The translations under genes were made by a program, and so were the position numbers. Under the pieces are notes generated by a model that saw nothing but the letters and a program-made list of their open reading frames with translations, was not told the origin of the DNA and made no database searches. Below, in pieces: positions 1 to 14,749 of a stretch of DNA of 64,000 bases. Each line of letters begins with the position of its first letter. Positions within the stretch are counted from its first letter, which is position 1. The stretch is from a virus. Its lineage: Duplodnaviria > Caudoviricetes. The stretch spans positions 1,757 through 65,756 of the IMG/VR virus record IMGVR_UViG_3300032954_000011, one strand, 5' to 3'.

Positions 1-801
1 ACTTCCGGATATGCGCTGGTTCCGCAGAGTTCGAATTGTCTGGCGGCTGGGGGGATTAGCGGCCTGACAACAGGCTATATTCCCAAGGCTTCTGGGCCAG
101 CGACAGTAGTCAACTCGGCAGCCGATGATGGGATCACCAAAGCCAACACATTTACCTATACAGGTTCTGGAGGTATCACGGCGAGCGCGGGGCCGTTGAC
201 ATCCGGGCTTCCTGGGGGCGGTGTAGGCTCAAGCATCTTTCTCCAGCAGGAAGGCACCGCACCGGGAAGTCTATCGGCATCCGGTCAGGATAACTGCTAT
301 GCCGACTCGACGCAGCATGGCCTCCTGTGCAACTTCAACGCGGGCACGACGCTTCCCTTGGTACAGGGACCGGCATCGAGTACCAGCGGTTACATGGCCG
401 TATTTGGGGGAACGAATGGTGGGACAGTAAAGAACGGTGGCTTGATGTCCTGCACCGAAGTCTGGGGCGGTTCGGGAACATCTTTTGCCCTCACCAGTGG
501 TGACGATGCTATCGCGGACAATGCCTGCTACAACGATTCTGGGCTGACGCGGACTATCGTGGCCGTGAAGTGCGCCAGCGACAATGGCAGCAACACGACT
601 ACCGTGAATCCTACGTTCGGCTCTGCGGGAACTGGGACAACGATTCTAAGCGGCGCTCTGACCTGCGGAAACTCGAACGCGATGTCCTCAACTGGAACCG
701 TGAGCAACGCCTCTTGGACAACCGGCGCAGGCATCAACCCTGCCATGAGCGGTACGCTGACCGGCACGCATATCGTGATGATTGTGGAGTACCACTACTA
801 A
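1..801 (+). CDS. Fibre-like Gly/Ser/Thr/Cys-rich virion protein, 5'-truncated
   Basis: Frame open from base 1 (TSGYALVPQ...GLTTGYIPKASGPATVVNS, a fibre-type repeat); stop overlaps the next ATG (TAATG). Confidence 0.6.
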   Translation, partial: TSGYALVPQSSNCLAAGGISGLTTGYIPKASGPATVVNSAADDGITKANTFTYTGSGGITASAGPLTSGLPGGGVGSSIFLQQEGTAPGSLSASGQDNCYADSTQHGLLCNFNAGTTLPLVQGPASSTSGYMAVFGGTNGGTVKNGGLMSCTEVWGGSGTSFALTSGDDAIADNACYNDSGLTRTIVAVKCASDNGSNTTTVNPTFGSAGTGTTILSGALTCGNSNAMSSTGTVSNASWTTGAGINPAMSGTLTGTHIVMIVEYHY

Positions 802-12115: not shown

Positions 12116-14749
12116 ATGCTGAAGTTTCTGCGCAGGCTGGCGGTGGTGCTGGTGGTGGCGGCTGTGCCGGCATTTGCCCAAGGCACCCACTTTCGGGACA
12201 ACGTGACGAACAAAGCTGGGAACCCAGTCGCGGGCGCGGGGGTGCGGATTTGTGTGTCCGGTTCGACCGGGACGCCCTGCACGCCGCTGGCCTCTATCTA
12301 TAGTGATTCAGGGCTAACCAGTCCGATTACGCAGCCGGGTTTTACGACGGGCAGCGACGGGGTTTATGAGTTCTATGCGGCCCCCGGGCGCTACGACGTG
12401 CAGATTTCCGGGAGCAGCTTTAACACGGTGACGGTGCGCAATGTAAACGTACCGTGCGATGTAAGTCAAGCGCAGGCAGGGTGTGCGGCAGCGAGCATTG
12501 TGAACTCCCCCCAGACCAGCTCGGCCACACCGGTGCAGGTGGGTTGGCTGTGGTACCCCGGGACACAGAGCGGCTTAGTGACAGCCCCTACCAGCGGCCC
12601 CACGCTTACCAACGAGAGCAACACCGGCGGCACCATTGCCGGCAACCAGACTATCTACTGCGTGGACGTGTATGAGAACCGCAACGGGACGACCACGCAA
12701 AGCCCGCAAACCTCCCTGGCGATACCCGCCGGCACCAACACCAACATGGTCGCCGCGGTTCAGGGGGACTTAAACTGGCGCACCGGCGCCAAGGGCTATC
12801 GACTTTACTGTGGGACCGCAAACGGCGGCCCCTACTACTTGCAGCAGCAGCAAGTTTTGTCGGTGAACATTTCGTCGGTGGTGGCCTCGGCGGCGAACGG
12901 CTATACCGGCGGTGGCGGCAACTGGGCGCTCGTCACCACCTCTTCGGCGCACGGCGTGTGGACGGGCATGAGTGTGACGATTGCTGGCGTGACCAGTTGT
13001 AGCGGGGGAAGTCCGAATGGAACGTTCACTGTAACGCGGTCCCCATCGAATACCAGCTTTGTTATTTCTATTGGCAGTGGGGTCTCGGGCTGCGATGCGA
13101 GCTCGGGGACGGTCTCTTGGACAAACGAAATCAACGCCAACCACGCGCACCTGACGTTCGGCTATTTTATTATGTCGCAGCTCAACGGGAGCGGCCCTAC
13201 TCCACCGGGCTCAAACACAGCGGTGATTGATCCACTACAGGTGGCGCTTAATGCGACCTGTCCGGGGGGCCCGCAGGCGAACGTATGCGCTGGCATTCTA
13301 CAGGTTCCGGCGGCCGGCGCCACGCTCACCACAGAGCTTATTGTCTCTAACCAAGAAGAGCTTATAGGCCCCACCACTCCGCGTTCCGGCACCTCACCTA
13401 TCACTTGTTCGTGGGCTGACCCATGGGCGGGATGCGTAATGGTAATCGGGAGCAGCGGCAGCGAAAGCCACGGAATTTATATTCTCAGCGCAGGCAATGG
13501 CCTGATGCTAGCCGGGACGAACGTGAGCAGCCGCTTTGTGGGCGGTTCGATTGTATCTGGTTATCCCGGTGCACACGGGCTCTACGGCGCCGTTCGCATC
13601 ATGTCCGGGACCGGCCAGATTTTCAGCAACCACTTCGAAGACGTCTACATGAGTGGGGACCGCGCCGCCGTATTCATCACCAACTCCATTGGCTCCACGC
13701 TGGTGTTTAATGGGGGCCGGTGGGACACGGTGATTTCGGCTTTCGCGGATGAAAGCGGCCCCGGCGACCCCGACCGTATGGGCATCGGCGTGGGCGGGGC
13801 GATTTCAGGGGTGGTGCTGCAAAACATCATCGCCGAGAGCGGTACGGGAGTGATGCTGGACCTGAGAAACATCGGCCCAATCGTCAGCAACTTTTTGCTC
13901 GCTGACGCGACCCCCGCCGCCAACACGCCCGCCCCAGTCCGCCTTGGGATTGACTCCTGGGGCAGCGGCAGCGTCATTAACACCGAATTCCGGAACATTC
14001 GCTTTATCAGCAGCGGAAATTATGGCGCCGTGGTGCAGTATACCTCAAACTCCGGAAACAGCTTTGGCATTCAACTTTTCGAGAACGTGACCTTTGGCGG
14101 CAATACAGTGTGCATTGACGAGGGCAGCGTTCTAGGTACCACGCCTATCGCGCTTATCAACGTCGGCCAATGCGACCCGACCCCCGGCGCGGGCCATGTA
14201 ATCAACTACGGGGCGGCGGGCACCGGAATCAGCGTGGTAGGCGCCTACGGTTCCGGCTATCCCTCCATGTTCGGGCGCTCCCTAATCCAGGCCCCAGAGG
14301 CGGGGGGCTTCCCGAGCAAGGCGCGCCATTGGTTCATTGACACAGCCACCAACAACAATTACTGTCTCAATCCGCCTGGTACCTTTACTACTAACGCTAT
14401 TACCCAAGCCGATTTCTGCGTAGACAACGCCCACAACCTTAGCGCCCCCAATGGAAGCCTAAAGGCGTTTTCCTACATCTTTGGGGGCACTCCGGGAGTA
14501 ACCGGCTGCAGTGTCACTAACGTGTTGGGGGGCGCAACCGGAGGCTCTTTTAAGAGCGGCACCACTGGGACTTGCACCGTCACCATCACCCCCGGTATCA
14601 CCGCCACCAACGGGATTGGTTGCTGGGCCAAAGACCTAACCACCCCCGCCGATGAACCCAAGCAAACCGCCTATACTACCACTACCGCCACTTTGTCCTG
14701 GACCACGGTGAGCGGTGACTTGATTACCTACGGTTGTGGACCCTTCTAG
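12116..14749 (+). CDS. Tailspike/receptor-binding protein with an N-terminal signal peptide
   Basis: GGAG RBS; MLKFLRRLAVVLVVAAVPAFA|Q; anchor-like domain (LASIYSD...FTTGSDGVYEFYAAPGRYDV); beta-helix-like body. Confidence 0.7.
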   Translation: MLKFLRRLAVVLVVAAVPAFAQGTHFRDNVTNKAGNPVAGAGVRICVSGSTGTPCTPLASIYSDSGLTSPITQPGFTTGSDGVYEFYAAPGRYDVQISGSSFNTVTVRNVNVPCDVSQAQAGCAAASIVNSPQTSSATPVQVGWLWYPGTQSGLVTAPTSGPTLTNESNTGGTIAGNQTIYCVDVYENRNGTTTQSPQTSLAIPAGTNTNMVAAVQGDLNWRTGAKGYRLYCGTANGGPYYLQQQQVLSVNISSVVASAANGYTGGGGNWALVTTSSAHGVWTGMSVTIAGVTSCSGGSPNGTFTVTRSPSNTSFVISIGSGVSGCDASSGTVSWTNEINANHAHLTFGYFIMSQLNGSGPTPPGSNTAVIDPLQVALNATCPGGPQANVCAGILQVPAAGATLTTELIVSNQEELIGPTTPRSGTSPITCSWADPWAGCVMVIGSSGSESHGIYILSAGNGLMLAGTNVSSRFVGGSIVSGYPGAHGLYGAVRIMSGTGQIFSNHFEDVYMSGDRAAVFITNSIGSTLVFNGGRWDTVISAFADESGPGDPDRMGIGVGGAISGVVLQNIIAESGTGVMLDLRNIGPIVSNFLLADATPAANTPAPVRLGIDSWGSGSVINTEFRNIRFISSGNYGAVVQYTSNSGNSFGIQLFENVTFGGNTVCIDEGSVLGTTPIALINVGQCDPTPGAGHVINYGAAGTGISVVGAYGSGYPSMFGRSLIQAPEAGGFPSKARHWFIDTATNNNYCLNPPGTFTTNAITQADFCVDNAHNLSAPNGSLKAFSYIFGGTPGVTGCSVTNVLGGATGGSFKSGTTGTCTVTITPGITATNGIGCWAKDLTTPADEPKQTAYTTTTATLSWTTVSGDLITYGCGPF

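Follow-up and report, generated by a model that had tools for sequence, protein, structure and literature searches.

Can part of a tailed phage be finished on the far side of the host's inner membrane and still end up on the particle? The assembly of tailed-phage particles is regarded as a purely cytoplasmic process, and P22 tailspikes can be added in vitro to spike-less heads. The question is raised by a viral contig in IMG/VR (record IMGVR_UViG_3300032954_000011), of which we analyzed bases 1757-65756; this stretch of 64 kb is called the window here, and positions refer to it unless stated otherwise. Four genes of its late module encode cysteine-rich proteins that open with leaders of the Sec type. 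Three of them are named after the position of their start codon (801, 2381, and 12116), and the fourth, encoding 313 amino acids (aa), starts upstream of the window. Judged from sequence, export and oxidation of all four proteins are well supported. The 12116 protein is a tailspike candidate, and we lean toward the view that it joins the virion at or after lysis, as suggested by synteny, by the modular build of its family, and by one weak complex prediction made on proxies.

Leaders and cysteines of four late proteins

The preliminary description of this DNA had reported three leader-bearing open reading frames (ORFs), at 801, 2381, and 12116, and their translations and N termini read exactly as given there. 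Their starts had been said to be backed by coupling or a ribosome-binding site, and each ATG is indeed well placed: ATG 801 overlaps the upstream stop codon (TAATG) and has GGAG about 10 nucleotides (nt) upstream, ATG 2381 shares bases with the stop codon of the 801 gene (ATGA), and ATG 12116 lies 1 nt past a TAG stop, with GGGGAG 9 to 14 nt upstream. All three are real, and the count rises to four with the gene whose ATG lies at genome position 1616, again in a TAATG overlap with the upstream stop. Longer in-frame ORFs from 570 and 2135 were rejected, as they would overlap upstream genes by 230 to 250 nt and bury the leaders; so was one from 12008, which would overlap the upstream gene by about 107 nt and bury the leader there. 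The three had also been called structural-module proteins. They do sit in that module, and position is what the label stands on.

All four leaders carry a net charge of +2 to +3 ahead of a hydrophobic core. The cores are uncharged, span 13 to 22 residues, and have a mean Kyte-Doolittle value of 1.5 to 2.9; small residues occupy positions -3 and -1 in every case. None of the four window leaders has a lipobox with Cys at +1. Two arginines stand side by side in the 2381 and 12116 leaders, with KK in a 2381 relative of 98% identity (P0026) and RI, RH, RL, or RK in relatives of the 12116 protein. Since the twin arginines are not conserved and the leaders are only 18 to 24 aa long, we rejected a twin-arginine translocation (Tat) signal; Sec is the likely route. 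Altogether, the leaders look like cleavable Sec signals of the signal peptidase I type, an assignment that their sequence features support.

The preliminary description had allowed that the leaders might not be conserved in homologs; they are kept in relatives of the 801, 2381, and 12116 proteins. Three of four 801 relatives have one, and the fourth looks N-terminally cut. Seven of eight relatives of the 2381 protein begin with a leader (one with a lipobox, P0027), and the eighth carries an internal one after a probably miscalled start. The P0027 leader ends in L-A-A-C and has no small-x-small site; this relative may be a lipoprotein. For the 12116 protein, 22 relatives were fetched, and in 19 the leader ends small-x-small and is followed by a conserved Gln-Gly; the remaining three are one fragment and two sequences with odd N termini. 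Across an alignment of 18 sequences, the leader sequence varies, A21, Q22, and G23 are invariant together with the Cys pair C46/C55, and conservation just behind the cleavage site is among the highest in the whole protein. Two tandem leader-like segments precede the conserved mature N terminus in three relatives (P0012, P0018, and L019:9737-13705).

The conserved domain behind the 12116 leader (here the N-domain) opens a much larger sample. We collected 124 loci, of which 44 came from a pattern scan of viral contigs and 80 were the best from a scan of one genome per species, which had yielded 179 relatives among 193 matched stretches. Leaders were called by a crude rule made for this analysis. 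At these loci, 114 of 126 N-domain copies pass the rule; among the 12 that fail, 10 show a hydrophobic stretch and a site by eye, one is decayed, and one is leaderless. The same rule is passed by 24 of 449 neighboring portal, scaffold, capsid, adaptor-like, and nozzle-like ORFs, and the leaders of the N-domain family are far above this background. Run against 1.84 billion representatives, the N-domain profile gave 5,578 matches at E ≤ 1e-3, 1,534 at E ≤ 1e-10, and 213 at E ≤ 1e-30. Among 147 further best matches, 129 contain the motif of the mature N terminus, preceded in 126 cases by a hydrophobic stretch and by small residues at -1 and -3; the other 18 have leaders with a variant motif, are N-terminal fragments, or have starts called short. 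A full-length form that starts at the mature N terminus was found in none of the 147.

The mature parts of the fourth, 801, 2381, and 12116 proteins contain 8, 18, 24, and 20 cysteines, all even numbers, which makes 70 in 2,303 residues (3.04%). Across 28 other ORFs of the late module there are 46 in 8,275 residues (0.56%; one-sided Mann-Whitney p = 0.003), with none in the scaffold candidate, the capsid protein, or a 2001-aa late protein. The closely paired cysteines of the preliminary description are borne out, in that the enrichment is real and many cysteines of the 12116 protein form local pairs 9 residues apart. The same distribution is seen in the prophage modules introduced below (40 of 49 loci), in which the spike has 7 to 29 cysteines (mostly 15 to 29), the scaffold 0 to 4, the capsid protein 0 to 3 (mostly 0 or 1), and the adaptor-like protein 0 to 6 (mostly 0 or 1). 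Even counts occur in 85 of 103 distinct complete mature spikes, although these sequences are related and so do not make an independent test. The Sec-type leaders, their conservation, and the cysteine enrichment thus agree with the export and oxidation that had been proposed for these proteins, and from them we infer cleavage and disulfide bonds as well.

The 12116 protein and its neighborhood

An AlphaFold2 (AF2) model of the 12116 protein, built from 18 sequences, has a mean predicted local distance difference test score (pLDDT) of 67.9. In it, residues 3-15 form a leader helix and residues 24-112 a beta-sandwich; further beta domains extend to about 350, and a right-handed beta-helix spans about 390-680. 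The beta-helix reaches a pLDDT of 70 to 90, and the C-terminal part is unmodelled. Foldseek matched the beta-helix to a GH87 glucanase (8.7e-6), to the LKA1 gp49 tailspike (1e-4), and further to Klebsiella depolymerases and the Sf6 tailspike, the E values ranging from 8.7e-6 to 1e-2. As modelled, then, the body of the protein is a tailspike- or depolymerase-like beta-helix. Sequence searches of the PDB with the 801, 2381, and 12116 proteins gave no matches or chance-level ones.

What lies between the leader and this body? The preliminary description had spoken of a tailspike-anchor-like domain. The leader does precede a conserved N-domain, and the likeness to an anchor is one of analogy: sequence-level searches of Pfam, PHROGs, and the PDB found no known head-binding or fiber-anchor family in it. 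Residues 30-114 match CarboxypepD_reg (PF13620) weakly (E 1.3e-4; 22.7 bits, below the cut-off of 32.3 bits), a resemblance at the level of the fold only. Across 44 viral contigs, the N-domain is conserved at 40 to 52% identity on otherwise unrelated bodies, and the neighboring genes mostly have no match to the window. At the other end of the family, a module of about 70 aa with two cysteines is common to the C termini of P0004-P0006, P0009-P0016, P0018, and P0024; the 12116 protein does not have it.

The genes around the N-domain copies were classified with jackhmmer profiles seeded from two prophage loci (L070 and L078). The seeds were portal-like, scaffold-like, and capsid-like (phrog_14242) ORFs together with adaptor-like and nozzle-like ORFs, which have PHROG matches of the "virion structural protein" class; the five families were counted within flanks of 10 kb. 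Where at least 8 kb was available on both sides, 73 of 85 loci have four or five of these podovirus structural families. One genome locus (L071) and eight other viral lineages make up the nine loci with at most one family. Whether adaptor-like (67 loci) or nozzle-like (74 loci), the nearest ORF of the kind always lies on the strand of the spike. All five families are present in 49 loci; in the 40 of these that were examined, portal, scaffold, and capsid genes come in this order, then the adaptor-like and spike genes, either of which may be first, and last the nozzle-like gene. The spike is the only large receptor-binding candidate of these prophage modules. The nozzle profile also recruited some spike ORFs, through a shared domain or profile drift, so that the numbers for the nozzle may run slightly high; the crude leader rule is passed by 17 of 91 "nozzle" ORFs. 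Three chromosomal copies of the module (L054, L074, and L091) are split into several short ORFs and resemble decaying prophages.

In the window, the N-domain is about 38% identical to that of the prophage group, and the 12116 gene is tightly packed among late genes, with a gap of 1 nt to the stop codon upstream and of 10 nt to the adaptor candidate at 14759. Residues 165-346 of the 15950 protein, which is encoded next, match the nozzle-like ORFs of two viral loci, L039 and L041, by tblastn (4e-12 and 3e-6).

We also asked a complex prediction whether the N-domain could bind an adaptor. The chains were proxies from L070, two adaptor-like and three N-domain chains, in place of the window's own proteins. 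The median score was 0.49 (runs of 0.49, 0.44, and 0.54), the best of three controls reached 0.06, at least 75% of the contacts agreed between runs, and the pLDDT of the partners was at least 88; the verdict is weak support. In the calibration, 58 of 80 solved complexes and 2 of 110 mismatched pairs came up to the mark. Scores of 0.60 or below account for 7 of those 80 and for both mismatches that passed, so that a pass of this kind is more often wrong unless the complex was likely beforehand, and the prediction's own alignments and its 2+3 make-up differ from those of the calibration.

Particle component or free enzyme

How might an exported spike come to sit on a phage? On balance, we favor an account that joins Sec export, periplasmic oxidation, and a tailspike, the 12116 protein, that meets the particle at or after lysis. 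Late in infection, the whole late string would be expressed, the four proteins included; these four would leave the cytoplasm by the Sec system of the host, be cut by signal peptidase I, and be oxidized in the periplasm to a disulfide-bonded form. The capsid, portal, adaptor, nozzle, and ejection proteins, which are almost free of cysteine, would be built into particles in the cytoplasm. The periplasm would hold the 12116 spike for the time being, and its beta-helix may already be at work on polysaccharide there. With the particle built on one side of the membrane and the spike exported to the other, the two would therefore meet only at or after lysis; the spike would dock through its N-domain once the action of holin and endolysin opens the inner membrane, or in the lysate. 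The N-terminal beta-sandwich would then bind the tail beside the adaptor, and the beta-helix would bind or cut surface polysaccharide. The modelled beta-helix fold itself also favors a place on the virion for the 12116 protein.

The other three proteins, encoded between terminase and portal, would take the same export route and could be further appendages or free enzymes and lectins. The AF2 model of the 2381 protein is poor (mean pLDDT 55.8), with a confident right-handed beta-helix at residues 20-330 that Foldseek matches weakly to polysaccharide lyases and hydrolases (best E 2.3e-3). For the 801 protein, an Atlas lead points to viral clusters that carry Laminin_G_3 (score 0.80, below the reliability line), and the protein may be lectin-like, with two domains. 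The fourth protein has no match in Pfam or PHROG; its nearest Atlas clusters are all viral, some with Mtd_N, Phage_tail_C, or Peptidase_S74 (0.85 to 0.90), and these weak leads, which are leads only, hint at a fiber-like protein. We rejected the idea that P0031 and P0033 are fusions of 801-like and 2381-like parts, as BLASTP of the 801 protein against the two gave nothing significant (best E 1.7 and 0.074). Other viral contigs also have whole runs of Cys-rich ORFs with leaders (L130, L127, L033:4944-12022, and L125:3947-9980); in L130 (2437-9629), six such ORFs lie between a terminase-like ORF and a portal-like one, and the run of L127 (1653-13838) includes a leader-bearing ORF of 3,155 aa with 101 cysteines.

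The strongest alternative is that the exported proteins never join a particle and work as free periplasmic, surface, or secreted enzymes and lectins, which we regard as possible, if doubtful. Such proteins might thin exopolysaccharide or O antigen from inside to ease release, destroy the receptors of progeny or superinfecting phages, or decorate the infected cell. This explanation fits the 801 and 2381 proteins better than a particle does, because both lack the N-domain. The 801 protein has no recognizable anchor, and in the 2381 protein, which has no anchor domain either, the beta-helix follows the cleavage site immediately; a free secreted role is therefore at least as likely for these two as a place on the particle. 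The leader-bearing runs of L130 and L127 likewise look as much like a secreted toolkit as like a set of fibers, or more so. Known proteins offer precedents. WceF of Pantoea stewartii is a bacterial, exported, trimeric, tailspike-like glycanase with a beta-helix and an N-terminal export signal that acts on exopolysaccharide outside the cytoplasm (PMC7949094), so exported beta-helix enzymes exist in bacteria with no phage particle. Lambda Lom is a leader-bearing, non-virion protein encoded among the tail genes (PMC12309495). However, WceF differs from the window proteins in that it belongs to a chromosomal biosynthesis cluster and is exported by Tat as a folded protein (PMC7949094), whereas the window has Sec-type leaders on phage late genes.

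Several further observations weigh against a particle-bound spike. The profiles seeded from L070 and L078 did not pick up the 14759 and 15950 proteins, hhalign of these proteins against the adaptor-like (A2) and nozzle-like (A3) alignments gave probabilities below 1%, and the 14759 protein has no family match, with chance-level rows only for both in PDB sequence searches; what still ties them to these labels is the tblastn match of the 15950 protein to L039 and L041. The docking domain is thus better conserved than its presumed dock, which is odd and would fit a partner on the host side. The adaptor and nozzle labels derive from position, N-terminal appearance, and "virion structural protein" PHROG matches instead of a solved relative. 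The complex test was run on proxies and passed only weakly, 18 of 103 spikes have an odd number of cysteines, and the whole case is one of sequences and models.

What, then, speaks for the particle? If the spikes were free proteins, the prophage modules would be left with no evident receptor-binding protein except the nozzle; this elimination leaves a gap, as the nozzle itself may bind the receptor. The combination of a conserved N-domain with variable bodies is the hallmark of particle-bound spikes, and it would be unusual for a merely secreted enzyme to have its most conserved residues right after the cleavage site. The genes are tightly packed in the late string and have no signals of their own, and the complex test, for what it is worth, points the same way. 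From these observations we infer a virion role for the 12116 spike and the timing of its attachment.

A second alternative keeps the leader on the protein. The hydrophobic stretch might stay uncleaved and serve as a membrane tether or as a docking helix in the tail, the protein folding in the cytoplasm like an ordinary tailspike. The AF2 model does draw a helix at residues 3-15, cleavage itself is a prediction, and the N-terminal residues of the SU10 short tail fiber touch the nozzle protein (PMC9509320). However, hydrophobicity is all that is conserved in the stretch, and the invariant small residues at -3/-1 and the invariant residues that follow are what a cleaved signal would show, and not a specific docking helix; in a reducing cytoplasm, moreover, neither the even Cys counts nor a Cys excess of five-fold would make sense. 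We therefore consider this reading improbable. Still more improbable is that the genes are host-derived cargo (morons) that serve a lysogen and are unrelated to the lytic particle: N-domain relatives do occur in Acidobacteriota chromosomes, and the N-domain weakly resembles CarboxypepD_reg, which is common in exported bacterial proteins, but the chromosomal copies lie inside podovirus-like structural modules on the same strand, the G+C content of the leader-bearing genes in the window matches that of their surroundings, the genes overlap or abut their neighbors with no standout promoter or terminator, and the only integrase-like sequence among the ORFs scanned, which leave out the early arm, is a fragment-like ORF of 110 aa.

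Genome, host, and known systems

The ends of the 65,756-bp contig repeat over 127 bp, so it is a complete or near-complete genome, and it belongs to a podovirus-like (short-tailed) phage. The plus strand has a single late gene string that begins near 60 kb, passes through the contig ends, and stops at 27.5 kb (Table 1). It runs from the terminase large subunit through several small ORFs and the leader-bearing cluster to the portal, a scaffold-sized ORF, and the major capsid protein, continues with an M15 peptidase, a histidine phosphatase, small membrane-like ORFs, the 12116 gene, the 395-aa ORF, and the 826-aa ORF, and ends in further ORFs with no assigned function, including the 2001-aa protein. 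A scan for promoters and terminators stayed at chance level, with 5 promoter-like sites (4.6 expected) and 13 terminator-like sites (17.4 expected).

Table 1. Coordinates of the leader-bearing genes, their parts, and other late genes discussed in the text
Feature	Position in window	Strand	Basis and remarks
Fourth leader-bearing gene, 3' part	1..801	+	313 aa; ATG at genome position 1616, which is 140 nt before the window; mature part 8 Cys
801 protein	801..2384	+	527 aa; leader ~801-872; mature part 18 Cys
2381 protein	2381..4390	+	669 aa; leader 2381-2434; mature part 24 Cys
Portal	4449..6536	+	PF23899 SU10_portal 1.1e-21, 77.4 bits (cut-off 30); phrog_1216 and phrog_332
Major capsid protein	7898..8908	+	phrog_1357 8.5e-41; PF25209; 0 Cys
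M15 peptidase, likely endolysin	9360..10091	+	PF08291 1.8e-7; phrog_894
Small membrane-protein-like ORFs downstream of M15 peptidase	10606-12114		Translations
12116 protein, tailspike candidate	12116..14749	+	877 aa; mature part 20 Cys
Sec-type leader of 12116 protein	12116..12178	+	21 aa; predicted cleavage before Q22
N-terminal beta-sandwich domain of 12116 protein	12179..12460	+	aa 22-115; invariant C46/C55; candidate particle-binding domain
Right-handed beta-helix of 12116 protein	13283..14155	+	aa ~390-680; AF2 model and Foldseek
Adaptor candidate	14759..15946	+	395 aa; 2 Cys; label positional only; starts 10 nt after the 12116 gene
Nozzle-like tail protein	15950..18430	+	826 aa; 6 Cys; tblastn to L039/L041; weak phrog_511 match
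Terminase large subunit	60611..62122	+	PF03237 3.9e-10

Four other ORFs of the late string deserve a word. The histidine phosphatase (His_Phos_1, 3.3e-27; 9896-10609, +) lies beside the M15 peptidase and has a relative in the viral locus L044. The 2001-aa protein (21195-27200, +) has no cysteine and no match in Pfam or PHROG and may be a giant internal or ejection protein. The 110-aa ORF that closes the string (27197-27529, +) matches only the N-terminal SAM-like domain of integrases (PF02899, 2.9e-5); no integrase catalytic domain was seen in the scanned ORFs, a scan that left out the early arm. A leaderless ORF of 226 aa (62925-63605, +) resembles the C-terminal part of the leader-bearing spike of viral locus L030 (33% identity over about 180 residues) and might represent a detached tip domain or a chaperone.

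Relatives of the 12116 protein are found almost only in assemblies of Acidobacteriota (Terriglobia and "Acidiferrales"), and the host is therefore most likely an acidobacterium of the Terriglobia type. In a collection of cultured phages, which may omit records close to the window, the portal protein has at most 25% identity to any portal, the portal and capsid proteins together stay at or below 30%, and the 12116, 2381, and 15950 proteins have no match (tblastn for 12116 and 2381). Tunturi 1-5 are cultured phages of Terriglobia hosts, three of them with podovirus morphology and with genomes from about 63 kb (PMC11924767). The terms for signal peptides, tail fibers, tailspikes, and mass spectrometry each occur 0 times in the main text of PMC11924767.

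With P22 gp9, the Sf6 tailspike, LKA1 gp49, AP22 gp54, and the Klebsiella depolymerases, the 12116 protein has in common a right-handed beta-helix and a variable body behind a conserved N-terminal domain, and with podovirus tailspikes it shares the place in the tail module, beside adaptor-like and nozzle-like genes. In contrast, known podovirus tailspikes have no signal peptide and fold in the cytoplasm, whereas the 12116 protein has a Sec-type leader, an N-domain without a match, and 20 paired-looking cysteines. For P22, the lack of a signal peptide is stated in the legend of a preprint figure (10.64898/2026.09.13.751334). The window shares its portal family (PF23899) with the SU10/phiEco32 type of tail. 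The SU10 tail comprises portal gp6, capsid gp9, adaptor gp11, long fibers gp12-13, short fiber gp16, nozzle gp17, and needle gp18, and its fiber genes lie between the capsid and nozzle genes next to the adaptor, the same place as the 12116 gene (PMC9509320). Sequence searches (PHROG, Pfam, PDB) found no similarity to the fibers, adaptor, or nozzle of SU10 except for the weak phrog_511 match, and the excerpts of PMC9509320 do not mention a leader on the SU10 fibers.

Tailed phages do encode proteins with genuine Sec signals, namely, fOg44 Lys44 and the signal-arrest-release (SAR) endolysins (PMC6116005). However, the exported endolysins and Lom are small lysis or outer-membrane proteins, not beta-helix or fiber-like proteins of 500 to 1,400 aa with a conserved N-domain. 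They are also the only leader-bearing cases that we found: the full-text literature searched, outside which lie subscription journals and supplementary files, yielded no tailed-phage spike or fiber with a signal peptide, and none appears in the excerpts of PMC6116005, PMC5723332, PMC12309495, PMC12210884, and PMC11924767. A tailspike or tail fiber with a Sec export signal and disulfides, as predicted here, is thus not described in that literature.

What would this mean for the phages that carry such proteins? The N-domain family is large (5,578 representative clusters) and marks a widespread group of soil phages. We tentatively propose that a large lineage of Acidobacteriota podoviruses builds its particles in two compartments, with heads and tail hubs put together in the cytoplasm and with spikes that are obligatorily exported by Sec, that are cut, disulfide bonded, and trimerized in the periplasm, that dock by their newly exposed, highly conserved N terminus only at lysis, and that maybe strip host polysaccharide from beneath before. 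Because cultured phage-host pairs of Terriglobia exist (PMC11924767), the idea can be tested at the bench. If it holds, tailed-phage assembly would gain a last step that crosses compartments and is tied to lysis, and Sec, signal peptidase, and the Dsb system would become dependency factors of the phage. Annotation pipelines in which a signal peptide counts as a sign that a protein is not part of the virion would give wrong labels to the receptor-binding proteins in this group, and spikes stabilized by disulfides could explain how the particles remain stable in acidic soils.

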